Shown piece after piece: positions 19,000 to 64,000 of a stretch of DNA of 64,000 bases (its first letter is position 1; each line of letters opens with the position of its first letter). The position numbers and the translations under genes are program-made. Where the stretch lies: positions 22,386 through 86,385 of the forward strand of contig CAZEBS010000007.1 in assembly GCA_964510635.1 (NCBI GenBank), given 5' to 3'. The notes under the pieces are model-generated. The model saw only the letters and a program-made list of their open reading frames with translations. It did not search any database and was not told the origin of the DNA. This stretch comes from an uncultured Candidatus Bathyarchaeia archaeon. GTDB lineage: Archaea; Thermoproteota; Bathyarchaeia; Bathyarchaeales; Bathyarchaeaceae.

Positions 19000-19542
19000 C
19001 TATACAATATATCGGTAGGCTTCGTACTTTCCTGCAGTGGTGCTCTTTCTGATGACTCTAACTATGTCGCCTGGCTTGCCGCCCACAGCTATTATGGCAG
19101 GGTCGTGAGCGTTGATTCGAGGCAGCTGGTATGCTTGCACCTTATAGTCTTCCAGAAACTTCTCCTTTTCCTTAGGTGTGAGAAGTTCATGCTTCGACAC
19201 AAAATCGTGGTCGAAAATTTGGAAGGAGGGAAAGATTTTGGGTATCAGTTCTATTCCATTTTTTTTAGAGCGGGTCTTAGCTGTGTGAGTATATTTTCCG
19301 ATAGTTGTGATTATTCCTTTCTCAATTTCGGCGTCGTCCATGGCTTTTTTGAGTTGGGTAACATATGCGACGCCCACTGTTCCGTCTGTAGTAACAGCCC
19401 AAATAATCGCCTTCTTGCCATCCTTCATTTTGACCGTGAAGCTGATGGCATTCTTTATGTCTTCCTTTTTAAGTAGCTTGTAACCACGAAGTTTTATTAG
19501 AATCTTGGTTTTCTTCTCTACCAACGTTTCTTCAGAACTCAA
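19000..19542 (-). CDS. rpoH: DNA-directed RNA polymerase subunit H (Rpb5 homologue) with a long N-terminal domain
   Basis: The C-terminal HELLTPKEKEKFLEDYKVQAYQLPRINAHDPAIIAVGGKPGDIVRVIRKSTTAGKYEAYRYIV is a clear RpoH/Rpb5 C-domain. The protein is 180 aa, whereas typical archaeal RpoH is ~75-85 aa. See findings. Confidence 0.8.
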   Translation of the reverse strand: MSSEETLVEKKTKILIKLRGYKLLKKEDIKNAISFTVKMKDGKKAIIWAVTTDGTVGVAYVTQLKKAMDDAEIEKGIITTIGKYTHTAKTRSKKNGIELIPKIFPSFQIFDHDFVSKHELLTPKEKEKFLEDYKVQAYQLPRINAHDPAIIAVGGKPGDIVRVIRKSTTAGKYEAYRYIV

Positions 19543-23714: not shown

Positions 23715-24764
23715 TTATTTTGCCAATATCATGTGATCAGAGGGTTTGCTTCCCAGCAGCAACCTGAAGTGGTCACGTTTTCCTTCTTGTTGAACGCGTT
23801 CAAGTTTTCCTTCTGCAATCACTGTTTCACCACTTTTTGCTTGTTCACAGAATCTTCCTCGAAAGGACACGATCTCTTCAATTGGTTTAGTTTTGTTGCC
23901 TTCAAGTGTTTGCACGTTGGCGAGTTTGTATGTGCATGGCGTGAAGAGGGCTTCTGAGTCGTCGGCAATTGTGGCTTTTATTTTTGCATTGCCTTCGGGC
24001 TTGTAGATGATGCTGCCGTATTGTTCACTGATTTCGTTCCGGTCTTTCACGAAGCGGATAAAGAAGTGTTTGTTCATGAATTTGCCGTGAGAAACTTTTC
24101 GGGAGTCGGTTCGAACAAAATCTTCGAAAGTTACGTTGGTGTCCTTCGAACGGAAATCGAACAACTCTTTTAATCCATCATGGTTGTAGGCTTCGAATGG
24201 GCTGGCTTCGTCTTCCAGCAGTTTCTTCATTGTTTCTGCTACCCTGTAGCCTGTTTTGGTTCCGTAAACAACGAGATCAATGTCTGAGGCTGGCTCCTGA
24301 AGCCTGACTAGGATTGACCCTGAAACGCCCAGCTTGCTCCATTGAACCCCCGATTTTTCCTTTAGAAGTTCCATGAACCGTAAAGCCGCTGTTTCTGCCT
24401 CATCCAAGTTGTTTCTGTTTCGTAGCTCCTGCAACCCCTGAGCTGGCTGGTAATGGGTTTTTATGTCTTCGTGGGGGACTTCGCATAGTAGCGTGTTGAA
24501 GACTGTGTCCTCGACGAGGTATTGGGGGTATTTCTGTTTCAGTAGGGCGTAGCGTTCGGAGAGGTTGTAGAATTTGCTGTATCGTCTTCCATCTCTTTCT
24601 CGGCTGCCCGTTGGGTCAGGAACGTAACGAATGAAGGCAACCACCCTGTCCGGAGGATGAACTAACCCCTTAACATCAAAAACGATGCCGTCCACTGATT
24701 CTATGAGGTCGCCTTCTCTAAACCTGATGTCCAGTTTTTGGTTTTCTCCTTTCTGAGCATTCAA
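23715..24764 (-). CDS. Predicted Pol-beta-superfamily nucleotidyltransferase with a C-terminal OB-like domain
   Basis: GVSGSILVRLQEPASDIDLVVYG carries the G-S...D-x-D minimal nucleotidyltransferase motif. 349 aa. The C-terminal beta-rich segment is only presumed to be OB-like. Confidence 0.5.
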   Translation of the reverse strand: MNAQKGENQKLDIRFREGDLIESVDGIVFDVKGLVHPPDRVVAFIRYVPDPTGSRERDGRRYSKFYNLSERYALLKQKYPQYLVEDTVFNTLLCEVPHEDIKTHYQPAQGLQELRNRNNLDEAETAALRFMELLKEKSGVQWSKLGVSGSILVRLQEPASDIDLVVYGTKTGYRVAETMKKLLEDEASPFEAYNHDGLKELFDFRSKDTNVTFEDFVRTDSRKVSHGKFMNKHFFIRFVKDRNEISEQYGSIIYKPEGNAKIKATIADDSEALFTPCTYKLANVQTLEGNKTKPIEEIVSFRGRFCEQAKSGETVIAEGKLERVQQEGKRDHFRLLLGSKPSDHMILAK

Positions 24765-24766
24765 CT

Positions 24767-25513
24767 CTACTTTTGTTTCGGCATTAATTTAGATTGCAGA
24801 TAATCTACAGCTGTTATTCTTATACCGCTTCTCTTCAATGCTATGAGGACACCACTGCCAATAATTGCCCCCATAAGACAATTCAAGGAATCTGCTATTG
24901 CGTAATACACGGTCAAAGGCGCCCAGAACGCATACAAGTCGGGGATTCCCCAGCCCAATACCCAGACGGCAATATTGTTACCTGTAATCACATCACCGCC
25001 TATACGGGCTATCCAAGCTAAACACCAAAGAGCTATTGGTAGGTATTTCTTGTTTCTGGTGACAATAGTGTTAACGATCCATTTCCTTACTGGAGGAATA
25101 ACGATAAGCGCTAGGACAAGCCAGTATTCCCATGTGATGATAGGCATTTGTTCATACCAAGCAAATGGGTGAAGGAACCATATCACAAGCTGACCAAGAA
25201 GTATCAATGTGGCTTCTTTCCATCGATTGAATAAAACGAGTCCACTCATTAATGCTGCCAGTGTTGGAGCTAGAAATGTTAGTACTCCGATTGAGGTTGC
25301 TGGGTTAACAATAGGAACTGCCCAGCCGAAGATTAAACCCGAGACTGTTCCATATATTGGACCTAACAAGGGTGCTGTTAAGCTTGAAAGTAAAACGCTG
25401 GAAACTGTTATTTGAGCAGAAGTTCCTGCAATGGGATAAACTGGCCAGAAGCTAACTGCAAGGAGAAGGGCAGTCCAGATAGCGATTAGGGCTATGTTGA
25501 TGCTACTGAACAT
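24767..25513 (-). CDS. Integral membrane protein (transporter S-component-like)
   Basis: Hydrophobic from MFSSINIALIAIW onward. I use the ATG at 25513. The track N-terminal extension to 25657 covers a conserved non-coding repeat and looks non-coding. Confidence 0.5.
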   Translation of the reverse strand: MFSSINIALIAIWTALLLAVSFWPVYPIAGTSAQITVSSVLLSSLTAPLLGPIYGTVSGLIFGWAVPIVNPATSIGVLTFLAPTLAALMSGLVLFNRWKEATLILLGQLVIWFLHPFAWYEQMPIITWEYWLVLALIVIPPVRKWIVNTIVTRNKKYLPIALWCLAWIARIGGDVITGNNIAVWVLGWGIPDLYAFWAPLTVYYAIADSLNCLMGAIIGSGVLIALKRSGIRITAVDYLQSKLMPKQK

Positions 25514-25629
25514 GCTTTTTTCTTTTGTTTCAACCAATATTTTTGCCTCAATGAGAGTTTGTTCGCTGTGTAATTTTTTACACTCTATCCCTGCCTCTGT
25601 ATATAAGATTAACTCTTTTTTTCGGCAGT

Positions 25630-25683
25630 TTTTCTGAAAAAATACTGTTTTCAACAATGTACCTCTATTAGGAGTCTAATATG
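25630..25683 (+). repeat. Copy B of the tripartite element
   Basis: tttttctgaaaaaatactgTTTTCAACAATgtacctCTATTAGGagtctAATATG. The blocks are at 25648-25658, 25665-25672 and 25678-25683. Confidence 0.6.
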
Positions 25684-25717: not shown

Positions 25718-25774
25718 CAGAAAAACAGAAAAACCATTTTTTCAACAATCTGCTGCTATTAGGTTCCTAATATG
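25718..25774 (+). repeat. Copy C of the tripartite element
   Basis: cagaaaaacagaaaaaccatTTTTCAACAATctgctgCTATTAGGttcctAATATG. The blocks are at 25739-25749, 25756-25763 and 25769-25774, 91 nt downstream of copy B. Confidence 0.6.
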
Positions 25775-25944: not shown

Positions 25945-26054
25945 TGAACAAACATTCACTTCGTAGAAACTAAATAAATATATGTTCAGTAAAAAGAAAA
26001 GGTTTATATACAAATAGTCAATATTCATCAGATTAATTGAATAAGAGGTGTTCA
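25945..26054 (+). promoter_or_regulatory. Promoter module of KaiC-like gene 1: upstream site TGAACAAACATTCA, TATA block TTTATATACAAA, AATATTC box, and SD AGAGGTG
   Basis: TGAACAAACATTCA at 25945-25958, then 44 nt, then TTTATATACAAA at 26003-26014, then 5 nt, then AATATTC at 26020-26026, with AGAGGTG at 26044-26050. The same architecture occurs at 27107-27219 and on the minus strand at 42463-42563. Confidence 0.65.
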
Positions 26055-26800
26055 GTGTGACGATTCCAAAAACAAGAACCATCGAATGGATTGACATAGG
26101 AGTAAAGGGACTGACAGATTTCATTCCTGGACTACCAAAAGGCGACGCAATTCTGATCCGAGGTGAACCAGGTACTGGGAAAACAATCTGCTGTCTACAA
26201 TTCCTTCATAAAGGAGCAGAACTAGGCGAAAAATGTCTATACATTACCACAGAAGAAACTCCCGAATCAGTAATGCGAACTGGAGCAGAACTCTGGTCCG
26301 ACTTCCCCGACCTGATCAGAGACGGAACAATACAGGTCATCAACATGTCCATAAGCGCAGAATACGCCAGCGAATACGGCATACTTGAAAAAGCAGAAGC
26401 AATGACTATTGCCGAAAAAGGATTTGCTGCACAACCCAAAGCAACCAGAATCGTAATCGACTCACTATCTTCCCTTGAGAGGCGCCTGTCTGATTATGAA
26501 GAATTCCGAGAAGTCTTTATGAGGTTGCTACTGGAAACCAAACGCAAAGGAGCAACTGTGATGCTTACCGCCGAAGGTATCCCCCTGACTCCGGACATCA
26601 CTGAATATCTCGTAGACCACTTGATATACCTTGACTACCGAAAACAAGACAATGAATGGACACGCGTGTACATTCTCCGAAAGTCACGAAGCGTACCCCT
26701 GAAACCTCAGATACTCAAGCTAGACATCAAACCAGGCGGTCTATCAGTCGAAGAAACACCATTCGCACTAAATCCTGTGTGGTTCCAAAGCAAAATCTAA
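26055..26800 (+). CDS. KaiC/RecA-superfamily ATPase, single-domain (paralogue 1)
   Basis: Walker A GEPGTGKTICCLQF, LYITTEETP, and Walker B RIVIDSLSSL. I place the start at GTG 26055, which aligns with the ATG of the paralogue behind the same AAGAGGTG-N6 context. Confidence 0.8.
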
Positions 26801-26816
26801 GCAAAGAATTGCTGCG

Positions 26817-26860
26817 CCTCACATCAACTGTGAGGACTACCCTTTTTTCTTCCTTTTTCT
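26817..26860 (+). terminator. Hairpin plus T-run terminator after KaiC-like gene 1
   Basis: CCTCACA-tcaac-TGTGAGG (26817-26835), followed by cccTTTTTTcTTccTTTTT. Confidence 0.5.
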
Positions 26861-27106
26861 AACTTAGTACAGTTGTTAAAAGTAAATCGTTAAGCAGGCG
26901 CTTTTATGTACATTGAGTTTGCTGTCGCTTGTTCGCTCCCGCCCCTTTTTTTGGGATTTTCGAGAGTGCATGAATGTGTATATTTTGTCCGCTGGGTGTT
27001 CTTGAGTTTAACAGGATTTTTCTGGGTTTGTTTTTTAGCAATAAATCACGTCTTAATTAATTAATTAAAAACTTTCTGGATTGAAATTTAATTTTTAATA
27101 ACATAT

Positions 27107-27219
27107 TGAACAAACATTCAGAGTTTAGAGAGTTACTAAATAAATATTCAGTAAAAAGAAAACATTTATATACAAATAGTCAATATTCTGCTGTTTAATT
27201 GAATAAGAGGTGATTCAGT
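27107..27219 (+). promoter_or_regulatory. Promoter module of KaiC-like gene 2 / amt; a duplicate of the 25945-26054 module
   Basis: TGAACAAACATTCA at 27107-27120, then 44 nt, then TTTATATACAAA at 27165-27176, then tagtc, then AATATTC at 27182-27188, followed by TTAATTGAATAAGAGGTG before the ATG at 27220. Confidence 0.65.
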
Positions 27220-27960
27220 ATGGCTATGCAGAAAACATCAAACATCGAATGGATCGACATCGGATTGGATGGCTTGGAGAAATTTATTCCCGGCATTCCA
27301 AAAGGCGACGCAATACTAGTGCGAGGTGAACCTGGCACAGGCAAAACGATCTGCTGTCTACAATTCCTCTACAGAGGAGCAAAACAAGGCGAGAAATGCC
27401 TGTACATTACCACGGAAGAAACCCCTGAAACAGTAATGCGCACTGGAGGAGAACTCTGGTCCGACTTTCCTAAACTGATAAGAAATGGAACAATAAAGGT
27501 CGTTAACCTTTCAATCACTGCAAGCTACGCCAGCGAATACTGTCTAGTAGACAAAACAGAAGCCATGGACATCGTTTTTAAAGGCTTGAGGGCACAACCC
27601 AATGCCTCAAGAATTGTAATCGACTCGTTATCTTCACTGTCTAGGCGGTTATCTGACTCTGAACAATTCCGCCAAGTCTTCATGAAAATACTGATGGAAA
27701 CCAAAGGCAGAGGAGCAACAACACTATTCAGCGCCGAAGGAATTCCCCCAACTCCTGGAATCACCGAATACCTTGTAGACCACTTGATATACCTTGACTA
27801 CCGAAAACACGACGTGGTCTGGACACGCGTTTTCCTTCTACGGAAGGCACGAAGCGTACCCATGAAACCTCAAGTATTGAAACTGAACATCAAGGCAGGT
27901 GGACTCTCAGTAGAAGAGATACCCTTCTCGCTGAAGCCTGTTTGGTTCGGCAGTGAATAG
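27220..27960 (+). CDS. KaiC/RecA-superfamily ATPase, single-domain (paralogue 2)
   Basis: Collinear with paralogue 1 and highly similar by eye over the full length (IEWIDIG..GL..FIPG.PKGDAIL.RGEPGTGKTICCLQFL...EYLVDHLIYLDYRK). Ends 11 nt before amt. Confidence 0.8.
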   Translation: MAMQKTSNIEWIDIGLDGLEKFIPGIPKGDAILVRGEPGTGKTICCLQFLYRGAKQGEKCLYITTEETPETVMRTGGELWSDFPKLIRNGTIKVVNLSITASYASEYCLVDKTEAMDIVFKGLRAQPNASRIVIDSLSSLSRRLSDSEQFRQVFMKILMETKGRGATTLFSAEGIPPTPGITEYLVDHLIYLDYRKHDVVWTRVFLLRKARSVPMKPQVLKLNIKAGGLSVEEIPFSLKPVWFGSE

Positions 27961-27971
27961 AAAGGTGATTA

Positions 27972-29294
27972 ATGATGACATTAGATCCAGCAACTGAAGC
28001 ATGGGCAGCGTTCCAGCAGAACTTCTTCGTAGGATGGGCACCCGTAGCCATCTTCATCATGGCAACTGCAGGTTTCGCCCTGTTCTATGCAGGAATGGTC
28101 CGCAAAAAGAACGTTACCCACACGATACTTCAAATCAACGTAGGATGGACACTAGCCTTTGTGGTCTACTTCCTCATCGGCTTCCCACTCGCATACTATG
28201 TATCGGCTCCAGTACTCGGGTTACCACAGTTCGTTCCCACAATAGCTAACCCACTGCCGCCATTGCTGTCTGAAACAGGCGCTTATGGCATAGCCGCAAG
28301 CCCCTCTGGCCTCGGTGACCTGGCAACATGGTTCAAAATGGCAATGTTCGCTATCACAGTCGTTGGCATCGTTCCCGGAGGCATGGCAGAACGTGACAAG
28401 TTCTGGGGCTGGATCCTAGCAACAATAGGTATCGCAGGTTTCATCTATCCCGTGGTTGAACACTGGGTTTGGGGTGGAGGCTGGCTATCTGAACTTGGTT
28501 TCATAGATTACGCAGGTTCAGGTGTAGTCCACCTTGTTGGAGGAACACTTGCACTAACTGGAGCGTATGTCATTGGTCCAAGGATCGGAAAGTTCGTCGG
28601 TGATAAAAAATTACCAAGAACATTCTTCGGACACAGTATTCCGCTATCTGTAATCGGTGCATGGCTACTGGCCTTCGGATGGTTCGGCTTCAACGTCGGC
28701 TCAAGCGTAGCCGGAGATGCAATGACAATCAACGTAGAACTCGCATGGGTCTCACTAACCACAGCAATGTGCATGGCTGGAGGCATGTTCGGTGCAGCAA
28801 TTACCTCAAGGGGTCACGTGCTAACAAGCATGGTTGGCTTGCTTGCAGGCGCTGTCGCAATATGTTCCGGAGCCGCAATCGTTCATCCACTAGCAGGCTT
28901 CGTAATCGGCATAATCGCGGGAGTAATCACAACCTTCACCATCGGATTAATGGAACACAAGCTGCACATCGACGACGCCTTGGGATGTTTCCCAGTTCAC
29001 GCAGCATGTGGAATCTGGGGACTACTCGCAACAGGAATCTTCGGTTACGCAGCTCTTGGAGCACATCCAATCTATGGATTCGCCGACATAGGAACATGGG
29101 TCAGCCAAATCGGAATTCAGGCAATCGGTGCAGTATCAATACTCGCCTGGGCGGGTGCAATGGGACTGATAATGTTCAGTGTGTTGAAGAAGCTTAACCT
29201 GCTAAGGGCTACAAGAGACCAAGAACTATACGGACTGGACATCGCAATACACAAGACGCTAGCATACCCCGAAGACATGATGGAAGACAAATAA
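27972..29294 (+). CDS. amt: Ammonium transporter
   Basis: 440 aa, ~11 TM. Carries AGFALFYAGMVRKKN, DYAGSGVVHLVGG, and the twin-His region FPVHAACGIWG typical of Amt/MEP. Confidence 0.9.
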   Translation: MMTLDPATEAWAAFQQNFFVGWAPVAIFIMATAGFALFYAGMVRKKNVTHTILQINVGWTLAFVVYFLIGFPLAYYVSAPVLGLPQFVPTIANPLPPLLSETGAYGIAASPSGLGDLATWFKMAMFAITVVGIVPGGMAERDKFWGWILATIGIAGFIYPVVEHWVWGGGWLSELGFIDYAGSGVVHLVGGTLALTGAYVIGPRIGKFVGDKKLPRTFFGHSIPLSVIGAWLLAFGWFGFNVGSSVAGDAMTINVELAWVSLTTAMCMAGGMFGAAITSRGHVLTSMVGLLAGAVAICSGAAIVHPLAGFVIGIIAGVITTFTIGLMEHKLHIDDALGCFPVHAACGIWGLLATGIFGYAALGAHPIYGFADIGTWVSQIGIQAIGAVSILAWAGAMGLIMFSVLKKLNLLRATRDQELYGLDIAIHKTLAYPEDMMEDK

Positions 29295-29302
29295 ACTCCA
29301 TA

Positions 29303-29338
29303 GCGCCATAACGGCGCAACCCTTTTTCTTCTTTTTTC
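29303..29338 (+). terminator. Hairpin plus T-run terminator after amt
   Basis: GCGCC-ataac-GGCGC (29303-29317), then aacccTTTTTcTTcTTTTTT. Confidence 0.5.
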
Positions 29339-40992: not shown

Positions 40993-42462
40993 TTAATAGT
41001 CTAGATATTTCATTATTTCCCACGGAGTGACATAGAGGCAGTACTGGTTCCAGTCATTGGTCTTGTAGTCTATGAAGGCATCGAATATGTGACTTCCAAG
41101 TGTCTCATGAATAACTTCGTCGCTCTGCATAGCCTCCAAAGCGTCTCTCAATGTTGTCGGCAACTCTTTAATGCCCAGTGCACGTCTCCTTTCAGGGCTC
41201 AACTCGTAAACGTCTTCGTCAACGGGGTCTCCGGGATCAATTTTCTTCTTTATTCCGTCAAGCCCAGCCATCAGTATGCACGCAAAGCCTAGGTATGAGT
41301 TGCATGATGGATCAGCAGAACGTAATTCGGCGCGTTTGGCTGCAGCATGCTCTGGTCCTTTGAAGTATACGGGAACACGTACCATGGCTGACCGGTTGCG
41401 GCGGGACCACATTATGTAAATGGGAGCTTCAAAACCTGGCACGAGTCGTTTGTAGGAGTTTACTGTTGGGCAGTTTATGGCGGTTATAGCTCTGGCGTGT
41501 TCTAGTAAGCCTCCGATGAAGTATCTGCCTGTCTGGCTCAACTCTGCGTAATCGTCAGCTTGGTCATACATTGCGTTCTTTGTTCCTTTCCATAGGGATG
41601 CATGAACGTGCATGCCGCTGGCGTTGTCAAGATAAACGGGCTTAGGCATGAAAGTTGCAATTAATCCATGCTTCTTTGCGATGTTTTTGGCTACGAACTT
41701 GTAATAGAGTGTCCTGTCAGCTGTTTTCACTAATTCGCCATATTTGAAGTCGATTTCAATTTGTCCTGCAGTGGCAACTTCGTGGTGGTGCATTTCAATT
41801 TCTGTGTCAAAGTTTTCTTCCAGCAGTGAGGCAACTTCGTTTCGGTACTCAACAGTTGTGTCCTCTGGTGGTGGTCTGAAGTATGCTTCTTTCGGTCTTA
41901 ATGTGTGGCTACCTGGAGTGGTTTCTGGGGACTTTGGCACAACTCGGGGTGCTCCCCATGAGTCTCCTGCGCCGCCTTTTGGACTAACCCACATGTCCCA
42001 AACAAGGTTTGTAGGGTCTATGGAGCTGAAGACGAAATATTCCAGTTCTGGACCGAATAAGCCTTTGTAGCCCATGTCTGCTGCTGCTTTGACTGCTCTT
42101 TTAGCTACGTATCCTCTTGGGTCTACGTCAGAAGGTTCTGAGCCTCCGTAAGCTTCATAGACATCTCCTATGATTATGGCACTTCTCTGCATATCATCGG
42201 TTGTCCATGGTATGATAGCTAGCGTGTCAGGGTTTGGTTTGAGAATCATGTCTGATTCTTCGATGGTTTTGAATCCTCGTACTGATGATCCGTCGAAGCC
42301 GATGCCGGCGGTTAGGGCTTGTCCCTCCGTGTAGTGTTTTGCGGGTATCACTACGTCCTGCATTAGACCTCGGATGTCTACGAAGGCTGTGTGTACCCAC
42401 CTGATTTTGTTTTTCTTTAGAGTTTCTCTGGCTTTTGTAATGGCCTCCATGTTATTCACCAT
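40993..42462 (-). CDS. glnA: Glutamine synthetase, type I
   Basis: 489 aa. FDGSS..GF, GPELEYF, NASGMHVHASLW, and NSYKRLVPGFEAP...WSRRNRSAMVRVP are all GS-I signatures. Confidence 0.9.
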   Translation of the reverse strand: MVNNMEAITKARETLKKNKIRWVHTAFVDIRGLMQDVVIPAKHYTEGQALTAGIGFDGSSVRGFKTIEESDMILKPNPDTLAIIPWTTDDMQRSAIIIGDVYEAYGGSEPSDVDPRGYVAKRAVKAAADMGYKGLFGPELEYFVFSSIDPTNLVWDMWVSPKGGAGDSWGAPRVVPKSPETTPGSHTLRPKEAYFRPPPEDTTVEYRNEVASLLEENFDTEIEMHHHEVATAGQIEIDFKYGELVKTADRTLYYKFVAKNIAKKHGLIATFMPKPVYLDNASGMHVHASLWKGTKNAMYDQADDYAELSQTGRYFIGGLLEHARAITAINCPTVNSYKRLVPGFEAPIYIMWSRRNRSAMVRVPVYFKGPEHAAAKRAELRSADPSCNSYLGFACILMAGLDGIKKKIDPGDPVDEDVYELSPERRRALGIKELPTTLRDALEAMQSDEVIHETLGSHIFDAFIDYKTNDWNQYCLYVTPWEIMKYLDY

Positions 42463-42564
42463 TCATTCAACTTAATGTGAGAATATTACAAGTTTGTATA
42501 TAAATCTTTCTAATGTGCTGAAGGAAAGCTTATATACATCTTCCGTTAATGAACAAGTGTTCAT
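42463..42564 (-). promoter_or_regulatory. glnA promoter module plus the perfect palindrome ATGAACA-AG-TGTTCAT, shared with the divergent lrp promoter
   Basis: The minus strand reads TGAACACTTGTTCA (42563-42550), then 45 nt, then TTTATATACAAA (42504-42493), then cttgt, then AATATTC (42487-42481), then 18 nt, then ATG. The palindrome at 42549-42564 is a 7-2-7 perfect inverted repeat. It lies 13 nt downstream of a plus-strand TATA (CTTATATA, 42529-42536) that serves lrp. Confidence 0.65.
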
Positions 42565-42590: not shown

Positions 42591-43091
42591 ATGACCAATT
42601 ATTCAATAAAAGGAGGAAATACTAAACTGAATTACGATTCACCCCACAAAGTAGATGAAGTCGACCAGAAAATAATCCGCCTGCTACAAGAGGATGCCAG
42701 AAAAAGCTTCAACAAGATAGCTGACAGCCTCGGAATAGCAGTTGGAACAGCCTACAACCGCGTAAAGAACTTAGAGGACAGAGGAATCCTGAAGGGTTAC
42801 ACTATAATGTTGGATTCCGCTAAACTTGGTTACGGCCTGACTGCCCTGATACTTATTGAGGCAGAGGGACGGTTTCTTCCCGAAGTTGAGAAGGGGCTTG
42901 CCAAGCTAGATGAGGTTATATGCATTTATGACATCACTGGCGACTATGACATTGCTGTGGTTGCGAGGTTCAAGGACAGAACTGCATTGAACAGCTTCAT
43001 CAAGTCGGCATTGAAAATGCCCCATGTGAGCAGAACGGTAACAAACGTTGTGCTCAATGTTGTCAAGGAAGACTTCAGAGTAAAGGTGTAG
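42591..43091 (+). CDS. Lrp/AsnC-family transcriptional regulator (full length, HTH plus RAM)
   Basis: VDEVDQKIIRLLQEDARKSFNKIADSLGIAVGTAYNRVKNLEDRGIL (HTH_AsnC) plus a C-terminal RAM domain. Divergent from glnA. Confidence 0.8.
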   Translation: MTNYSIKGGNTKLNYDSPHKVDEVDQKIIRLLQEDARKSFNKIADSLGIAVGTAYNRVKNLEDRGILKGYTIMLDSAKLGYGLTALILIEAEGRFLPEVEKGLAKLDEVICIYDITGDYDIAVVARFKDRTALNSFIKSALKMPHVSRTVTNVVLNVVKEDFRVKV

Positions 43092-43667: not shown

Positions 43668-46397
43668 ATGAAGAACAAAATATCTATCGCAATTACAATG
43701 CTAATTACGCTTTTACTGGCAAGTTCAACTCTTGTAACTATTGCCTTCTGCCCCTTTCCACCATCAGGAACCGAAGTCCCAACATACAGCAAAATCCTTG
43801 TTAGCCCTAACCCTGTTGGCGTCAACCAGCAAGTTACCATCAACATATTCAATGCCATACCCACACTCACCAGCGAACCCTACTATAATATGACAGTTGA
43901 AGTAACAGACCCTACTGGGCACACCACCACACTGGGCCCCTATAACAGCGACACCACCGGAGGCACTTTCACTAACTTTGAACCTGACCAAGTCGGTATC
44001 TGGGAATTCCAAATGTTCTATCCAGGCCAAACACTATCTAGGGGTTGGATCCAATTACCTGGCGAAAGCGAAGTTTTTCAACTAACAGTACAGGAAGAAC
44101 CAGTAGGACGAGAAAGCTTTCCATCTCCCCCGGGTCCAGAAAGCTATTGGGAGACTCCAGTTAACGCAATGAATGCTGAAAAATGGTGTGACCACATGGG
44201 AGAATGGTGGGGTCTTAGCGGTATAACTTTTGAACAAACTGGTGCAAACTATCATGGCGGAAACTATAATCCATACACTGACTCGGTTTATGCTGGTCAC
44301 ATTCTCTGGACAAAGCCATGGGGTGCAGGTGGTGTAGCTGGTGGTGAATCAGGTATTGATGAAGTTACAGGACACTTCTGGACCACTAGGCAGTATCAAC
44401 CCCAATATGCACCGATAATATTGGAGGGTGTAATGTATTCCGTTCTGTGGACAACATCAATGAGGAGTGCAGCACATAACGGCATTGTCGCAACTGACCT
44501 GTTCACTGGAGAAACTCTCTGGACGATAGAAGACACCCAAGAACGGTTGAGAGTAGGCTGGTCGCCTACTTGGCACAACCTTAACGAATACGGAACATTA
44601 GGTCCCTACATCATAACCACAGGTACACACCCAGGAGTTACATCTAGTGGAACAGCGTACCACATTTACGATGCCACCACTGGCAAATACATGGCAAGCA
44701 TCATTAACGGCCAGAGCATGACCCTCACTATAGACGATGACCGAGACTTGGTTGGCTACTATCAAGAAGTCAGTGGTAGTGACCGCCGTCTGGTCCGTTG
44801 GGACATGACCGAATGTGTGGGAATGACAAGCAATGGCGAACCTGCTTTCGGATGGGGTCTGAACCAAGACGCACAATACCAGTTTGACCGTGGAGTAGAA
44901 TTCTCTGAACCAATATTCAATTTCGCCGAGATTGATGGAGTAACCGATGCTTCACTTCTTACAGGAGGCGGCTTTATGGGACAGCCATTCGCAATAAATG
45001 AAATAACTAACGATGAAGTAGTGTTCACTGGTGGTTTCACCTGGGGACAAGGATTTGGAGGAACAACAAACGGATGGCTAGTTGTAGGAGCCATGGACAA
45101 AAACACTGGAGCGCAGTTGTGGGCTAGAAACATCACATACACAGAATCTGAAACCATGTTGCCATACACAAGAACGGAAATGGGTATACAAGACGGGTTA
45201 TGGATCAACGCCAACATGCAGAACTTCATAGTTGAAGCTTGGGATACAAGAACAGGAGTGAAAGCATGGACATCAAAACTAACAGGCGATAACGGTGGCC
45301 CACCGCATTACTTCGACCAATTTAACCTCCGCTGGTCGCCTGGAGATGAGGGTATATCCTTCTACAGAGGCCATGGAGGAGACATATGGTGTATCGAACA
45401 TGAGGACGGAAACGTACGATGGTACACTAACACAACTAAACTCGTTGGCCCACCAGGAGCTGAAAGCCCATACGATATTTGGCCGCTATGGGTTTTCGAG
45501 TGCGACTGTATAACCAACAACGTGGCATACTTCCCCATTGGTGCCGAATATAACCCACCACTGTTCCCTGGAGCACAAATGTGTGCAGTAAACGTCACTG
45601 ATGGCTCTCTAGTGTGGTCCGAATTGGGTTTCTATATTAGATCCACATCGTGTGCATATGATATTCTGTTATCGCTGAATGCGTACGACAACCAGATATA
45701 CGCCTGGGGCAAAGGAGCAAGTGCAACTTCAGTCGCAGCATCACCAAAAGTTACAGTAAACGGAAATAGTGTAATAATTGAAGGTACAGTCATTGACGTT
45801 TCTGCAGGCACAAAACGGAACGATGTTGCAGCAAACTTCCCGAATGGTCTTCCATGCGTTTCTGATGCGAGTATGAGCAAATGGATGGAATACGCCTATA
45901 TGCAGCAGGCAAAGCCTGAAGATGTTGAAGGCGTTGAAGTATTCATAAAAGTCCAAGATCCTAATGGCGACTATTACTCAACCTATGTTACAACCGACGA
46001 GAATGGTGTATTTAGCCACATGTGGGCTCCATCCTTTGTAGGCGAATACCAGGTCACTGTGCTGTTCGAAGGCTCCAACTCCTATTGGCCTTCACAGGCA
46101 ACAACCACCTTCGGCGTAGACGAAGCTGCTGCCGCAGCAGATTTTCCGAGCGCAGAAGAGATTGCTGCTGATGCTGCTCAGAGGGTTATTGCCATGCTTC
46201 CACCGTATCCTGATGTTCCAACACAAGAGGAGATTGCTGCTGATGCCGCTCAAAGGACTATCAACATGCTTCCACAGTACCCAGAATACACTGCAACTGA
46301 AATACCTGCATACCAAACAATCGACATTGTCATCATCGTGCTCGTTGTTGTCGCTATAATCATCGGGCTGTACAGTATCTTCAGAAAACAAAAATAA
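43668..46397 (+). CDS. Large secreted surface protein with PQQ-like beta-propeller repeats and a C-terminal TM anchor
   Basis: 909 aa. N-terminal signal/TM (ISIAITMLITLLLASSTLV). Trp/Gly-rich repeats (...LWT..., ...AWT.KL.G...) are typical of PQQ-like propellers. The C-terminal anchor is IVIIVLVVVAIIIGLYSIFRKQK. Confidence 0.55.
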   Translation: MKNKISIAITMLITLLLASSTLVTIAFCPFPPSGTEVPTYSKILVSPNPVGVNQQVTINIFNAIPTLTSEPYYNMTVEVTDPTGHTTTLGPYNSDTTGGTFTNFEPDQVGIWEFQMFYPGQTLSRGWIQLPGESEVFQLTVQEEPVGRESFPSPPGPESYWETPVNAMNAEKWCDHMGEWWGLSGITFEQTGANYHGGNYNPYTDSVYAGHILWTKPWGAGGVAGGESGIDEVTGHFWTTRQYQPQYAPIILEGVMYSVLWTTSMRSAAHNGIVATDLFTGETLWTIEDTQERLRVGWSPTWHNLNEYGTLGPYIITTGTHPGVTSSGTAYHIYDATTGKYMASIINGQSMTLTIDDDRDLVGYYQEVSGSDRRLVRWDMTECVGMTSNGEPAFGWGLNQDAQYQFDRGVEFSEPIFNFAEIDGVTDASLLTGGGFMGQPFAINEITNDEVVFTGGFTWGQGFGGTTNGWLVVGAMDKNTGAQLWARNITYTESETMLPYTRTEMGIQDGLWINANMQNFIVEAWDTRTGVKAWTSKLTGDNGGPPHYFDQFNLRWSPGDEGISFYRGHGGDIWCIEHEDGNVRWYTNTTKLVGPPGAESPYDIWPLWVFECDCITNNVAYFPIGAEYNPPLFPGAQMCAVNVTDGSLVWSELGFYIRSTSCAYDILLSLNAYDNQIYAWGKGASATSVAASPKVTVNGNSVIIEGTVIDVSAGTKRNDVAANFPNGLPCVSDASMSKWMEYAYMQQAKPEDVEGVEVFIKVQDPNGDYYSTYVTTDENGVFSHMWAPSFVGEYQVTVLFEGSNSYWPSQATTTFGVDEAAAAADFPSAEEIAADAAQRVIAMLPPYPDVPTQEEIAADAAQRTINMLPQYPEYTATEIPAYQTIDIVIIVLVVVAIIIGLYSIFRKQK
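46155..46298 (+). repeat. 72-nt tandem duplication inside the surface-protein gene (a 24-aa unit, EEIAADAAQR.I.MLP.YP...)
   Basis: Unit 1 at 46155-46226 (gaagagattgctgctgatgctgctcagagg...). Unit 2 at 46227-46298 (gaggagattgctgctgatgccgctcaaagg...). Confidence 0.75.
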
Positions 46398-57750: not shown

Positions 57751-58059
57751 CTATTGGACTTCAACGTTTTCTTCTGGATACCCTTGACGGATAAGGTATT
57801 CCCTTACTTTGTCTCGGTGATCACCCTGCAGAATGATTTCCTCATTTTTTGCGGTTCCGCCGCAGGCACAGAAAGATTTGAGTTTTTGAGCTAACCTGCT
57901 CAGGTTTGCTTCTTTTTCGTTGATGCCGTCGACGATGGTTACCGCTTTTCCCCATTTTCTTGTTTCTAAGCGCACTCGTATTCGTTGTTGCTCTTTCCCT
58001 ATTTCTTCGCAGACACAAATGTCTGAGGGTAGTCCACAGGTTGGGCAAATTTCAGCCAT
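57751..58059 (-). CDS. Translation initiation factor aSUI1 (eIF1 homologue)
   Basis: MAEICPTCGLPSDICVCEE...IRVRLETRKWGKAVTIVDGI...LKSFCACGGTAKNEEIILQGDHRDKV is the SUI1 fold with the archaeal N-terminal Zn knuckle. I prefer the ATG at 58059 over the track TTG at 58068. Confidence 0.85.
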   Translation of the reverse strand: MAEICPTCGLPSDICVCEEIGKEQQRIRVRLETRKWGKAVTIVDGINEKEANLSRLAQKLKSFCACGGTAKNEEIILQGDHRDKVREYLIRQGYPEENVEVQ

Positions 58060-58089
58060 GATACTCAACTAGAAAGGTCCACATTGGGG

Positions 58090-58102
58090 TATATAAGATT
58101 TT
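58090..58102 (-). promoter_or_regulatory. Putative BRE/TATA of the aSUI1 promoter
   Basis: The minus strand reads gAAAATCTTATATAcccc. The TATA (CTTATATA, plus 58090-58097) ends 30 nt upstream of the ATG at 58059, preceded by a purine-rich BRE-like AAAAT (58098-58102). Confidence 0.5.
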
Positions 58103-58111
58103 CAATGTTAT
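58103..58111. repeat. Target-site duplication, left copy (CAATGTTAT)
   Basis: Identical 9-mer in direct orientation at 63766-63774. Each copy abuts the outer end of a terminal inverted repeat. Confidence 0.8.
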
Positions 58112-58135
58112 GATACTGTTAAGTTATTTGTGATG
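58112..58135. repeat. Left terminal inverted repeat GATACTGTTAAGTTATTTGTGATG
   Basis: A 24/24 match to the reverse complement of 63742-63765 (CATCACAAATAACTTAACAGTATC). Confidence 0.85.
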
Positions 58136-58236
58136 AACTAAAGTCTATTGAACCTGTTAACCATTGGGATTTTTTTATTGTGTGACCTTAAGCTTAAATT
58201 TGGTTAATGTAAATAGGACATAAAGGGTATTGTCTG

Positions 58237-58785
58237 TTGGAAGAGAAAGTTCCAGAGAAAGATGTTCTTTGGCGTTTGTATGACGTTGCTTTGAATTTAT
58301 ACAAGTACGTGCATTCAGATGTTTGGGTTGGGCAGAAATATTACACCACTTTGAACATTGGAATAATAAGCATAGCCATTGCGCTGTTAGGGATTCCCCA
58401 CATTCTAGAGGGACCTTATTGGGTCGTAATAATACTCTTTGCAATAGGTATGATAACATCTATATTTGGTTATTTTAGCATTAGGAAATTGCGAGAAGCT
58501 TTTCTGAGTAACATCGCATTTAAAACCATCGTAGAATACTTGTTAAAGGATGAACTCGAATTAAAGAAAAATGATGTATCAGAAAAGCATCAATTGACAC
58601 CATTTTATAGCCTTCCAGAAGAGGATGTTTCTAGTATTCTTAAGTGTCCTGACCTTTGGAAAAAACAAAACATTTTCAGACTTGGTGGTGTTAGTTGTTT
58701 CTTCCTTTTGCTTCAACTAATTTTTGTTATAGTTAACCTTTTTGGGATTTTATTGACTCTCTTGCTGTATTTTGGTTATGTTTGA
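58237..58785 (+). CDS. Hypothetical membrane protein (transposon passenger)
   Basis: 182 aa, TTG start, 3-4 TM (IGIISIAIALLGI, VVIILFAIGMITSIFGYF, and C-terminal VSCFFLLLQLIFVIVNLFGILLTLLLYF). No recognised family. Confidence 0.45.
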   Translation: MEEKVPEKDVLWRLYDVALNLYKYVHSDVWVGQKYYTTLNIGIISIAIALLGIPHILEGPYWVVIILFAIGMITSIFGYFSIRKLREAFLSNIAFKTIVEYLLKDELELKKNDVSEKHQLTPFYSLPEEDVSSILKCPDLWKKQNIFRLGGVSCFFLLLQLIFVIVNLFGILLTLLLYFGYV

Positions 58786-58843
58786 TTAGGTTACGCAAGC
58801 TTTTTGATGGACTAAACTGTCTATCAAACAAGTAACTATGCCT

Positions 58844-60556
58844 TTATTTTGGAACAAGAGCCCATGTTTTCATGGCTATTTTTGCTAGTTGATTTTGTCG
58901 TTCATTAATGTCTTTTGCATCCCACAATGTTTCGTGGTTTGTCATGTCATAGATGCCCTTTGTGATGAGAAGTGGGGATTTTTTAAATTCTACTCGTTTA
59001 GATTGGAAATTAGAATTACCAAAAGTTGAATTAACCTTTGTATTTAGCAATGTCATGTTTCCAATTCTTTTGTGATATGACTCGAAAGTTTCAACATCAA
59101 TATGTGACCAGTTGCTTCCTTTTTCTCGTGGTAAAATATGCTCCAGATTAAGAAAGCTAGTGTCTTCAGAAGGTACCAGTTCTGGCTCTTGGTCTTTCCG
59201 AAGTTGACGTTCCATCGCACGTAAATAATACCTTGCAAGACTGTGTCGAGATACTCTAGCAGTTTCAAATGCTAACTTAAACTCGCCATCTCTTGGAATA
59301 ATATTTGATAAAGCATTCAATAATTCGTTCGTGGTCTTAATTTCACCTAAATATACATCATGTGCTTTTTCTCCATAGGCATCTTCTAATGCACCACCTC
59401 GCATTCCACCCGCTATCAAGAACCTCACCGTCCAAGAAACAAAAGAACGAAACGCTTTTTCCAATTCTTTTGGTTCAAAATGTTGAGCAACAGCAAGCAT
59501 TAAGGGCTGTATTTGGCGTACTTTTAACTCTCTCATTATGTTTATAGCGGTTGGAATTTTTGTTGAAAGACCACTCCATCTTGGATGGGTTGGAGTTACT
59601 ATTGCAACATAAGTGTCGGCGTAATCAGAAATCTTTTCTAGAAAACTGAGTGTGTTGGTTTTACCCCGTACTTCTTTCTTTATTTTTTCGAAAATTTCCT
59701 TTTCTCTTGTTGGACCAAACAAGGTGATAGCTAAATGTCGTAAATACGTCATTACCATGTCTTCTGCCCATGCTGTTTCCAATATGTTTGTCATCTTAGA
59801 CCATTTTGATTGTGCCTCGTTCACTCGAGTACCCGCCTCGCTAAAAAGATAATTCTTCACCAAGTCTGCTTGAGACGTTTTCAGTCCTCTGTCGTTGAGC
59901 GTTTCAAACATCGTAAAAGCGCTTACTTCATCTGGAACTGTAAGAAGAATAATTGTTGCTTTGTTTTCAATGAATTTTGACCATGCAATTAGTGTGTGTT
60001 TTATGTTTTCATCATTCAGTCCACGTATTATGTCTTGAACCAATGTTTCTGCTTTTTGGGCAGCAATATTTATTCTTCTGTGAGATTCTTTTTTCTCTTC
60101 TATATTTTGCCTTTCAGGTCTATTAGGAAGTGCAATAATGCGATTTTTAAAATATTCATTATCATCCATGTTAAGAGTTAATTTTGGAACCACTGTCTCT
60201 TGTTCGAGGTCATATTCACAAAGAAATTGACTCTCAATAGATGTTTGGGCTCGTTCTTGATTTTTGTGAAAATAGTAATCTCTAATTGCAGCCAGCAAAA
60301 TAGTAGTAGTGGCTAATCTCTGTTGCCCATCAACTACAACAGGTATATCTTCAGTTCCTTTTGAAACAACAATTGTACCCAAAAAATAACTTGGCAAGTT
60401 ATTTGTTATAGCACTTCGAAAATCTTGGAATAATTCATCAATTTGTTTATCTCCCCAAGAATACTCACGTTGATTTAGTGGAATCTTAAGCTGTTGCGCT
60501 TTTAACAAAGCGCCAATGCCTTTAAATTCGAAAGGTGGAGGTTGCATAACGTGCAT
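58844..60556 (-). CDS. DUF262 plus DUF1524 protein (GmrSD-like type IV restriction / ParB-like NTPase plus His-Me nuclease)
   Basis: N-terminal IPLNQREYSWGDKQIDELFQDF and VVDGQQRLATTTILLAAI are the DUF262 motifs. C-terminal NLEHILPRE...IGNMTLL...N is the DUF1524 HNH-like motif. 570 aa. Confidence 0.8.
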   Translation of the reverse strand: MHVMQPPPFEFKGIGALLKAQQLKIPLNQREYSWGDKQIDELFQDFRSAITNNLPSYFLGTIVVSKGTEDIPVVVDGQQRLATTTILLAAIRDYYFHKNQERAQTSIESQFLCEYDLEQETVVPKLTLNMDDNEYFKNRIIALPNRPERQNIEEKKESHRRINIAAQKAETLVQDIIRGLNDENIKHTLIAWSKFIENKATIILLTVPDEVSAFTMFETLNDRGLKTSQADLVKNYLFSEAGTRVNEAQSKWSKMTNILETAWAEDMVMTYLRHLAITLFGPTREKEIFEKIKKEVRGKTNTLSFLEKISDYADTYVAIVTPTHPRWSGLSTKIPTAINIMRELKVRQIQPLMLAVAQHFEPKELEKAFRSFVSWTVRFLIAGGMRGGALEDAYGEKAHDVYLGEIKTTNELLNALSNIIPRDGEFKLAFETARVSRHSLARYYLRAMERQLRKDQEPELVPSEDTSFLNLEHILPREKGSNWSHIDVETFESYHKRIGNMTLLNTKVNSTFGNSNFQSKRVEFKKSPLLITKGIYDMTNHETLWDAKDINERQNQLAKIAMKTWALVPK

Positions 60557-60560
60557 TCAA

Positions 60561-60785
60561 TCATCCCATCTTTATTTTTTTAAAAAACTCTATTGGATGT
60601 CCAACGGCTTCCAAATCTTTAATGGCTGCTTGTCTTAGTCTTTGACGTGCCCATGTAGACAGGGGTGTTCCTAAAATTTTAGCTGCGTCTTGAAATGTTT
60701 GCTTTTCGTCACTGTCAAGTCTTATCAGTAGAGTTTCTATCTTTTTGTCTTCTGTCTTTTTTGTTGGTCTTCCTCGTCCAGCCAT
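60561..60785 (-). CDS. Ribbon-helix-helix protein (DUF1778/CopG-like antitoxin-type), upstream partner of the GmrSD-like gene
   Basis: GRPTKK...TLLIRLDSDEKQTFQDAAKILGTPLSTWARQRLRQAA follows the RHH pattern. A perfect SD GGAGGTGA lies 6 nt upstream. Its stop is 4 nt before the GmrSD-like start. Confidence 0.6.
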   Translation of the reverse strand: MAGRGRPTKKTEDKKIETLLIRLDSDEKQTFQDAAKILGTPLSTWARQRLRQAAIKDLEAVGHPIEFFKKIKMG

Positions 60786-61022
60786 TTCTTTTCACCTCCA
60801 AATATTTGTATATTTAACTAATATACTTTTTCTAACTCAAAAGTTTATTGTATAATTTTTAGGCATACAAAAAAGGGATTTTATCACTTTATTTTGATGT
60901 TACCCTTTATTTTGTGTTCCCATTCTTCTTGAGTGATTACACCTTTTTCTTCCAACAATTCAACGAGACTAGTAAGCATTGTATCTAACAAATCAATTTC
61001 AGATGCTAAATCACGTTTGATT

Positions 61023-61187
61023 TTATTCTTCACATTTACCACCTTTATTGAGATAACCTTTCTCAGATAACCAATTCATAATGATTGTGCGAAGTGTATC
61101 TGAGTACCCTTCACCAAGTGTACCTATAAGGTCTTTGTCTATGAGGTCAACGATATTGGCTGGTAAGGCTACGAGTATTTTTCTCAT
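61023..61187 (-). CDS. CopG-type ribbon-helix-helix protein (54 aa), translationally coupled to the transposase
   Basis: Not in the track. My translation is MRKILVALPANIVDLIDKDLIGTLGEGYSDTLRTIIMNWLSEKGYLNKGGKCEE. Its ATG (61187-61185) overlaps the transposase TGA (61186-61184) as ATGA. Confidence 0.5.
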   Translation of the reverse strand: MRKILVALPANIVDLIDKDLIGTLGEGYSDTLRTIIMNWLSEKGYLNKGGKCEE

Positions 61188-62092
61188 TTTGCTATCACCA
61201 CCATCTTGTTCTTTTCTTTGTTATTATTTTGGTTTGTGACTCTAGCCAATAGCTCTGCTTCATATTTTGTGGCTTCCTCAATCAACCCCTTCCAGTTGTC
61301 AGGTGCGTTTGTTCTTGCAGCTTGAGCAGGAGTTTTTCCAATGCTTTGATGTTCTCTTACGAAGTTGTAGTGAACTGTGTATCCTTCTAGTATTGCGTTT
61401 GTGGATTCAAAGCCTTTTAGTCCTCTCATGGGCTTTGTTCGGTCTTTGAGTGTACCGTGTAGTCGTTCTACGATGTTGTTTGTTTCTCTTGTTCTGATTC
61501 CTACTCTTTGAACTAGTTCTACTTTGTCGGCTTTATATCTGGAATAGAAAACTTTGTTGAAGGCTCTTTGGTATGAATTGCATCCATCAACGAAAACTGC
61601 TCTAAGTTTTACTTTGCTTTGGTCTAGTCCTTTTTGGAAGATTGCGATTGTGTCTTTTAGAGTTCTAGTGTTTGAGAGGTGTGAGCTTACTATGAATTTG
61701 GTGTCTTCGTCGATCATTTCCCAGAACCATACATTGCGTCCTTCGCAACGGACAACTGTTTCGTCTTCATGCCATAGACCCGAAAGCTGAGGAACTAATG
61801 TGTTAACGTATTCCTTGACTAGAATTGAGTATTTCTTTATCCAGTCCAGAATTGTTACTTGGCTCACGGTTTTTCCGAATATCTGCTTTAGGTTTCTTTG
61901 GGTTTTGCGGAGAGATAAACCGTCAAAGTATAGATTAAGTGCTGTTACTATGATGTGTTTGTCAGTTCTCATTTTGGCGAATTTTCCGTTCATGTAGAAG
62001 CGTTTCTTACATACTTTGCATCTGTAGAGTTGTTTGCCTTTGACTTTGCCGTCTTTCACGAGTTTTTTGGAGCCACAATATTTGCATTGCAT
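61184..62092 (-). CDS. DDE transposase with N-terminal zinc ribbon and HTH (IS1/IS6-like by motif)
   Basis: MQCKYCGSKKLVKDGKVKGKQLYRCKVCKKRF (CxxC...CxxC), the HTH region LSLRKTQRNLKQIFGKTVSQVTILDWIKKY, and a DDE core WHEDETVV...FVDGCNSY...NNIVERLHGTLKDRTKPMRGLKGF. I start at the ATG at 62092. The track start at 62152 adds 20 unlikely residues. Confidence 0.8.
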   Translation of the reverse strand: MQCKYCGSKKLVKDGKVKGKQLYRCKVCKKRFYMNGKFAKMRTDKHIIVTALNLYFDGLSLRKTQRNLKQIFGKTVSQVTILDWIKKYSILVKEYVNTLVPQLSGLWHEDETVVRCEGRNVWFWEMIDEDTKFIVSSHLSNTRTLKDTIAIFQKGLDQSKVKLRAVFVDGCNSYQRAFNKVFYSRYKADKVELVQRVGIRTRETNNIVERLHGTLKDRTKPMRGLKGFESTNAILEGYTVHYNFVREHQSIGKTPAQAARTNAPDNWKGLIEEATKYEAELLARVTNQNNNKEKNKMVVIAK

Positions 62093-62209
62093 TGGTATCT
62101 CACAGCTATACTGTAAGTAATATGTGGTATATATAGCTTGTGGGTATACCACAAGACATCTAGAAACATGATAAAATAGTTAAAGCAATAAACAGAAACA
62201 GATAGTAGT

Positions 62210-63739: not shown

Positions 63740-63741
63740 TC

Positions 63742-63765
63742 CATCACAAATAACTTAACAGTATC
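63742..63765. repeat. Right terminal inverted repeat CATCACAAATAACTTAACAGTATC
   Basis: Exact reverse complement of 58112-58135. Confidence 0.85.
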
Positions 63766-63774
63766 CAATGTTAT
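63766..63774. repeat. Target-site duplication, right copy (CAATGTTAT)
   Basis: Identical to 58103-58111, in direct orientation, abutting the right TIR. Confidence 0.8.
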
Positions 63775-64000
63775 TCGGGTTGATTTTTGGACAGTTTTTA
63801 ACGTTAAAAGCTGTTGCTGGATTATGATATTTGGGTTTTTGACGGATGGTTTTGTTTGTAATGTTTCTTCCTTTAGCTGTGGTTTCCATGAAGTTAGGCA
63901 CCATTGGCTTGGTTTCTCAGGCCTGTGGACAAGACTGTATCGTGAACAGCCGTAACTCATGGGGCTTCAGGTCACTTCGTATCTTCGACCACTATCATTG

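Follow-up and report, generated by a model that had tools for sequence, protein, structure and literature searches.

To our knowledge, the control of prokaryotic ammonium transporters (Amt) has for 25 years been explained almost entirely through PII/GlnK. Here we describe a locus in a 64,000-nt stretch of DNA from an uncultured Candidatus Bathyarchaeia archaeon (contig CAZEBS010000007.1; the whole stretch is referred to as the window), in which the transporter gene amt is preceded by two genes encoding KaiC-like ATPases. We call these genes K1 and K2, the subfamily K, and the K-linked Amt subtype Amt1. Like K, the PII/GlnK partner of AmtB is a small cytoplasmic nucleotide-binding protein that is encoded in an amt operon and tied to nitrogen control, with an oligomer symmetry that could match the Amt trimer. 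The two are nonetheless unrelated in sequence and fold (K has no similarity to the PII domain PF00543), K is encoded upstream of amt, and 2-oxoglutarate sensing and a T-loop-like plug are features of the PII/GlnK side of the comparison.

Described KaiC-like proteins resemble K more closely. Archaeal single-domain KaiC-like ATPases such as P. horikoshii PH0186 (PDB 2zts) and PH0284 (PDB 2dr3) share the fold, size, Walker A/B motifs and Glu pair of K, and PH0186 is the top Foldseek match of K (E = 1.6e-15, TM-score 0.65-0.73; sequence match E = 2.5e-22), with the limit that Foldseek does not tell PH0186, KaiC-CI and FlaH apart and resolves the superfamily only. However, these proteins are only ~27% identical to K and have no known link to Amt, and the invariant PVWF tail is K's own. 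Cyanobacterial circadian KaiC provides the best PDB sequence matches (E = 5e-36 to 1e-25) and has the same EE motif, but its ~500 aa form two domains in tandem and its partners are KaiA and KaiB, whereas K has one domain. ArlH/FlaH is, like K, a single-domain KaiC-like ATPase of similar fold (PDB 4yds, TM-score 0.66); it regulates a membrane machine through direct binding, as K is proposed to do. GvpD, the haloarchaeal gas-vesicle regulator, has a P-loop region of the same clan, but is about twice as long as K, with extra domains, and K scores 25-27 bits against it versus 146-148 bits for KaiC. The idea that KaiC-like ATPases serve as archaeal signalling hubs is already known (Makarova et al., 2017, as cited in PMC5847659).

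The adjacency of K and amt in the window is not due to chance, since it recurs in each related locus that we examined. We define an "Amt-associated KaiC-like ATPase" module as a K gene lying directly 5' of an Amt1 gene on the same strand, and found this arrangement in 26 of 26 distinct loci, whereas 30 control loci, which carry other KaiC-like genes and together span 245 kb, contain no Amt of any kind. The controls were distant KaiC-like loci from a scan of metagenome contigs with the K family alignment, a set dominated by the generic Walker A sequence GEPGTGKT. A preliminary description of the window had suggested that these ATPases take part in ammonium sensing or transporter regulation, and had proposed a survey of related archaea; this comparative analysis strongly backs a functional link, and shows that the adjacency is conserved rather than unique to this genome. 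The 26 loci comprise 16 Bathyarchaeum-type genomes (the window and 15 GTDB species), four other archaeal lineages and six Anaerolineae-type bacterial lineages, with host GC contents from 37 to 62%, such that the adjacency is not an archaeal peculiarity, as the wording of that description might have implied.

The neighbourhood of the module differs between these groups. Bathyarchaeum-type loci (window, L001-L015) have the order K1-K2-Amt. The other archaeal loci have a single K, and read glnA, divergent from Lrp/AsnC-RHH (ribbon-helix-helix)-K-Amt (L024); K-Amt-Amt2, syntenic with the window (L058); K-Amt with a 3-nt gap (L059); and Lrp/AsnC, divergent from K-Amt (L060). Bacterial loci named Anaerolineae (L022, L053/54, L055, L061/62) have the order PucR-glnA-K-Amt, and bacterial loci with 61% GC (L026-28, L056/57) have GlnE-(PucR)-K-Amt-PII-Amt-PII; only in this last group is PII adjacent to the module. 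Thus, glnA, PucR, Lrp/AsnC, RHH, GlnE and PII differ by lineage, and Amt1 is the sole constant neighbour of K. The gap between K and amt is 3-26 nt in the other archaeal loci. Archaeal and bacterial copies diverge in parallel, with K ~72-76% and Amt1 ~67-74% identical. As judged from gene order and these identities, the module is invariant across Bathyarchaeia and Anaerolineae, and has passed between the two domains as a unit.

Within the window (Table 1), the genes are arranged much as first described. The preliminary coordinates of K2 and amt were exact; the start given for K1, 26055, is out of frame (19 stops), and the mechanical open reading frame (ORF), 26048-26800, opens at GTG 26048. 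We placed the start by alignment with K2 and orthologues, at a GTG that has a Shine-Dalgarno sequence, GAGGTG, 6 nt before it and is replaced by ATG in several orthologues; hence K1 is a protein of 247 aa. K1 and K2 are, as had been noted, collinear and highly similar, with 73% identity in protein and 76% in DNA. K1 is a separate upstream paralogue, and the K1-K2 gap is 419 nt, not 420. A terminator of its own had been described for K1, and the predicted hairpin and T-runs agree with this; the terminator is missing where K1 and K2 abut (L009 and L011). In those two loci K1 and K2 are only ~25 nt apart, from which we take K1-K2-amt to be one operon. At the K2-amt junction we saw neither a terminator nor a promoter in the 11 nt, which contain the amt Shine-Dalgarno sequence, and K2 and amt are almost certainly co-transcribed.

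Table 1. Positions of the K-amt cluster, the glnA region and other features in the window.
Feature	Position	Strand	Evidence or remark
Palindrome TGAACAAACATTCA, putative nitrogen-regulon operator	25945-25958	+	112 nt upstream of K1 start
K1 core promoter block: RTTCAG half-site, AAAAAGAAAA (resembling the TFB-recognition element, BRE), TATA box TTTATATA (26003-26010), CAATATTC	25985-26026	+	
K1, single-domain KaiC-like ATPase, 247 aa, GTG start	26057-26800	+	PF06745 E = 1.6e-42; start from alignment with K2 and orthologues
K1 terminator: 7-bp hairpin CCUCACA/UGUGAGG (26817-26835), then two oligo-T runs (26843-26848, 26854-26858)	26817-26858	+	Minimum free energy -12.4 kcal/mol, z = -2.5
Palindrome TGAACAAACATTCA, exact copy of K1 site	27107-27120	+	113 nt upstream of K2 start
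K2 core promoter block	27147-27188	+	TATA box TTTATATA at 27165-27172
K2, single-domain KaiC-like ATPase, 246 aa, co-operonic with amt	27220-27960	+	PF06745 E = 2.8e-43; stop TAG at 27958-27960
K2-amt junction, 11 nt	27961-27971	+	amt Shine-Dalgarno GGTGA at 27964-27968
amt, K-linked subtype (Amt1), 440 aa	27972-29294	+	PF00909 E = 6e-93; ATG at 27972
Terminator-like hairpin GCGCC-ATAAC-GGCGC plus T-run, closing the K2-amt unit	29303-29327	+	
glnA (glutamine synthetase)	40993-42462	-	Gln-synt_C E = 4e-126; likely true start ATG 42450
glnA palindrome TGAACAAGTGTTCA	42550-42563	-	~45 nt upstream of TATA block TTTATATACAAA (42493-42504)
Lrp/AsnC-family regulator	42591-43091	+	HTH_24 and AsnC_trans_reg; divergent from glnA
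Two adjoining genes, 349 aa and a 296-aa membrane protein	23715-25657	-	No Pfam or NCBIfam match
46-nt direct repeat, two copies 91 nt apart	25638-25683; 25729-25774		76% identical
CARDB-repeat protein, 913 aa	29426-32167	+	
180-aa protein with Rpb5/RpoH C-terminal domain	19000-19542	-	Mrr_cat-like domain (residues 32-100) E = 3.6e-8
72-nt tandem coding repeat, two copies	46140-46283		76% identical; within ORF 43668-46397 (PQQ_2/BamB-like)

The downstream gene is assigned to Amt/Mep/Rh. All pore residues are kept in the window Amt (F107, W148, D160, H168, F215, S219 and H318 in EcAmtB numbering), as are all seven in every Amt1 and Amt2 that we examined; against TIGR00836 it scores 332 bits, just short of the 343-bit cutoff. 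Transporters beside K are 67-93% identical to the window's Amt and have a conserved cytoplasmic C-terminus, GLDIAxHKTxAYPEDMxE, whose HKTxAYPEDM tail is conserved in Amt1 only; Amt2 and E. coli AmtB have the usual GLDxxxHGExAY. Amt2 is ~28-31% identical to Amt1, has its own promoter, and shifts position between genomes. K pairs solely with Amt1 and never with Amt2, even where one cluster holds both. One arrangement, the order K1-amt2-K2-amt1 of L012, could be read as a second, K1-Amt2 pair; we rejected this because amt2 is preceded by two palindromes of its own and its place in the cluster differs from genome to genome. The amt2 gene, with its canonical C-terminus, is present in L003, L004, L010, L012, L015 and L058, where it lies 5' of K1, between K1 and K2, or 3' of amt1, always with two palindrome copies upstream. 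We found no second amt in the window.

K1 and K2 belong to the KaiC/RecA-like ATPase superfamily and, as had been claimed from the sequence, each consists of a single such domain; both match Pfam KaiC PF06745 at 146-148 bits (cutoff 26.6) over profile positions 2-228 of 231. The clade is isolated. Its members are at least ~68-70% identical among themselves, with a mean column identity of 78-81% across domains, and a search of 1.84 billion cluster representatives gave a single full-length 50%-identity cluster for K and nothing with an identity of ~35% to ~68%; beyond this cluster come two-domain KaiCs of ~480 aa, at ~30% identity. About one-third of the database homologues form a third clade, equally far from K1 and K2, that comes from the single-K archaeal loci and from bacterial contigs named Anaerolineae. 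The window comes from a relative of Candidatus Bathyarchaeum: its K genes share 91-96% identity with those of metagenome-assembled genomes from this taxon, among them the complete Ca. B. tardum M17C-01 genome. K2 is the most conserved gene of the cluster, with orthologues 85-96% identical (89-96% in 13 of the 14 full-length copies); for K1, the 14 related loci that span its position have orthologues with 80-96% identity.

Across 49 K sequences, the Walker A motif GEPGTGKT, the catalytic pair E66-E67 and the Walker B motif IVIDS (D135) are invariant, indicating that the catalytic motifs are intact; I-T-E-Y at 181-184, R208, K209, R211 and a C-terminal GLSVEExP..L.PVWF tail are likewise invariant in the clade. 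I-T-E-Y 181-184 occupies the position of the KaiC-CII phosphosites S431/T432. An AF2 model of K, with a predicted local distance difference test (pLDDT) score of 68.8, has a RecA-like alpha/beta fold and matches KaiC-CI and PH0186, and the PVWF tail is unstructured in it.

K reached none of the NCBIfam curated equivalog cutoffs. The scores against circadian KaiC (NF006799 / TIGR02655) were 93 versus a cutoff of 408 bits and 58 versus 546 bits, and those against KaiC_arch_3/4 about 80-87 versus 248 bits; K also has one domain of 246-247 aa rather than two in tandem, and neither kaiB nor kaiA was annotated near K, whether in the window or at any of the related loci. An identity as ArlH/FlaH, which the preliminary description had named as a reason for doubt, is likewise rejected (41-47 versus 215 bits and 43-52 versus 194 bits for NF052589 / NF004723), and no arl or fla genes lie near K, the neighbours being amt, the CARDB-repeat protein and membrane proteins. 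We similarly rejected RadA/Sms (30 versus 403 bits) and RadB (21 versus 172 bits). The match to GvpD is a borderline one to the P-loop (25-27 bits, cutoff 24), K has about half the length of GvpD, and gvp genes are absent nearby; a 25-27-bit P-loop match was also all that linked K to mad8 in a defence-system library, and we dismissed this assignment. Source annotations of K homologues are either unspecific or incorrect ("KaiC/GvpD/RAD55 family", "circadian clock protein KaiC", "gas vesicle protein GvpD"). Family matches of odd length (P0123, P0195, P0163 and others), which might have been K fusions, were chimeric assemblies, frameshifts or mis-called starts.

The K genes had been said to have the same nitrogen-type promoter as glnA, and this is what we found. 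The ~110 nt 5' of K1 and K2 are nearly identical, exceeding the similarity of the coding DNA, and the 42-nt core blocks are alike save for two N positions (chance expectation, 0 matches). Footprinting across species revealed several conserved elements, namely the palindrome, an RTTCAG half-site abutting a BRE-like A-tract, a TTTATATA TATA box and CAATATTC, with TTAATTGAAT conserved directly before the ribosome-binding site. The glnA promoter has the same palindrome, an identical TTTATATACAAA box, and the AATATTC and TTGAAT elements seen at K1 and K2. In its consensus form, TGAAY-N4-RTTCA, the palindrome is conserved at the K1 site in 10 of 11 sequences (the window and nine of ten related species; the site in L003 is degenerate), and is also present upstream of glnA in L024, in the same arrangement, of the single K in L058, and of every amt2. 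The window has six exact matches versus 0.55 expected by chance, and the archaeal loci have 43 in 288 kb; the sites that we mapped lie upstream of K1, K2, amt2 and glnA. TGAAY-N4-RTTCA thus looks like a nitrogen-regulon operator, and the Bathyarchaeum-type module appears to sit behind a promoter/operator common to glnA and the second amt. We take its core, GAA-N6-TTC, to resemble the NrpR operator of methanogens, and no Pfam match to NrpR was found among the 46 window ORFs scanned. The Lrp/AsnC-family protein encoded divergently from glnA is a candidate for the protein that binds the palindrome; a gene of this family is also divergent from glnA in L024 (6804-7268) and from K in L060 (5210-5701).

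We consider the chances about even that K is an ATP-dependent partner or regulator dedicated to Amt1. We propose that K would be made together with Amt1 under nitrogen limitation and would assemble into a RecA-type ring, which in Bathyarchaeum may be a K1/K2 hetero-oligomer, a possibility suggested by the fact that all Bathyarchaeum species have kept both genes. The ring would act directly on Amt1 in a nucleotide-dependent manner, either gating the transporter or relaying ammonium and energy status, and the likely contact surfaces would be the acidic C-terminal tail specific to Amt1, the invariant flexible PVWF tail of K, or both. K may therefore represent an additional kind of Amt partner rather than an obligatory substitute for PII. 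We favour such a direct partnership over mere co-regulation because Amt1 is the invariant neighbour, the pairing is subtype-specific, the two genes appear to have been transferred jointly between domains, and the operon is tight. A more far-reaching version, which we regard as tentative and on balance rather unlikely, is that K founds a second, PII-independent class of Amt regulator, in which a ring docks on the Amt trimer, and ATP binding, hydrolysis or autophosphorylation gates flux or makes Amt1 a sensor. For Bathyarchaeum, this version envisages a K1/K2 hetero-hexamer of three-fold symmetry as the ring, and the spread of the module would be due to transfer between the two domains.

Several observations weigh against a dedicated Amt1 partner. 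Direct contact between K and Amt1 is inferred from gene order and subtype specificity, and the tally of 26 loci was counted from K-bearing loci. In bacteria, the K-amt gap is 36-156 nt, such that co-transcription there is not assured. The structure model of K is of moderate confidence, and the conserved C-terminal tail might serve oligomerisation instead, by analogy with Rad51/RadA. Lastly, four bacterial lineages have the order glnA-K-amt, and K could therefore equally serve glutamine synthetase or a regulator. This last point leads to the strongest rival account, that K is a nitrogen-signalling ATPase acting on a transcription factor or on glutamine synthetase, much as GvpD acts on GvpE or as has been proposed for KaiC-like "hubs", and that adjacency to amt reflects a common nitrogen regulon. 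Regulator genes are indeed found nearby (Lrp/AsnC, RHH, PucR), K has the operator of glnA, and the weak GvpD_P-loop match and the proposed role of KaiC-like ATPases in archaeal signalling point the same way. We nonetheless think this account unlikely: the regulators differ in every lineage and glnA adjoins K in some loci only, whereas Amt1 does so in all 26; K is never paired with Amt2, which is co-regulated; and K crossed between domains together with Amt1, whereas the regulators did not.

A dedicated Amt1 partner must also be weighed against replacement of PII. The preliminary description had reported that there is no PII gene in the 64 kb, and we likewise detected none: tblastn with three PII queries gave a best E value of 1.5, and a PII profile searched against all six-frame window ORFs of at least 40 aa gave a best E value of 6.5, whereas the same profile recovered four bacterial PII genes, used as positive controls, at about 1e-54 to 1e-56. 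No PII gene lies next to Amt1 in 24 of the 26 loci, or next to any archaeal Amt2, and the B. tardum genome paper lists amt, with no mention of PII in the paper or its supplement (PMC10477458); further literature searches on PII in Bathyarchaeum yielded nothing. In two Anaerolineae lineages, PII directly follows the K-linked Amt (L026, 10107-10445; L056, 8108-8446), and its divergent T-loop, GRGRQSAVGTTPDGVTLYAG, carries Asp in place of E. coli GlnK's pore-plugging Arg47; a second PII of the same cluster, 3' of the other Amt, keeps an Arg-containing loop. These observations would fit a model in which K plugs or closes Amt at nitrogen sufficiency in genomes that have lost glnK. We find this model quite improbable, since a ring ATPase and the trimeric PII share no structure, and since K-amt-PII occurs as such in the two Anaerolineae lineages, so K and PII can coexist. 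The anticorrelation of K with glnK that the preliminary description implied is therefore not strict. It is very improbable that the adjacency is a historical accident in which K, with an unrelated role such as DNA repair like that of RadC/aKaiC paralogues, hitch-hikes with amt: the KaiC/RecA superfamily does include repair proteins, and PDB sequence matches of K include SSO2452 and RecA, but the order is kept in all 26 loci despite wholly different flanks, a wide range of GC content and two domains, K and glnA have a nitrogen operator in common, and purifying selection is stronger on K than on Amt.

A dedicated KaiC-like/Amt module found in both domains appears to be undescribed. Full-text literature searches that paired KaiC or KaiC-like with ammonium transporter, amtB or glnK returned nothing relevant, in keeping with the earlier statement that no such role was known for this family, although the survey of archaeal KaiC-like proteins by Makarova et al. 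(2017) was not covered by these searches. If our preferred reading is correct, ammonium uptake would come under a new regulatory principle, namely an ATP-hydrolysing partner strictly dedicated to a single Amt subtype, and Amt1 would be the first concrete cellular target for an uncharacterised archaeal KaiC-like "hub" ATPase. Bathyarchaeia are among the most abundant archaea in sediment, which makes their means of sensing and importing ammonium relevant to nitrogen cycling. The common TGAAY-N4-RTTCA site would provide a first handle on the nitrogen regulon of Bathyarchaeia.

Several other features of the window were noted. The CARDB-repeat protein is encoded 3' of amt in most Bathyarchaeum loci and diverges fast (50-83% identity); it is probably an unrelated surface protein. 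On the other side of the cluster, the pair of adjoining minus-strand genes is also kept 5' of K1 in L001 and L010, and the 46-nt direct repeat lies between K1 and the divergent membrane-protein gene (24767-25657, minus strand), in intergenic DNA. Archaeal genes in the window include those for TBP, TFB, an Rpb5 homologue, ribosomal protein L15e and RNase P p30, and the cdh operon for carbon monoxide dehydrogenase/acetyl-CoA synthase (CODH/ACS). GC content falls to 36% in 58001-64000, compared with about 42-48% elsewhere in the window, and this segment may be an island or foreign DNA. Archaeal RpoH usually consists of the C-terminal domain alone. In the 180-aa protein, the Rpb5/RpoH C-terminal domain (residues 107-179) is preceded by the Mrr_cat-like domain, which has a nuclease fold, an architecture that would resemble that of eukaryotic Rpb5.

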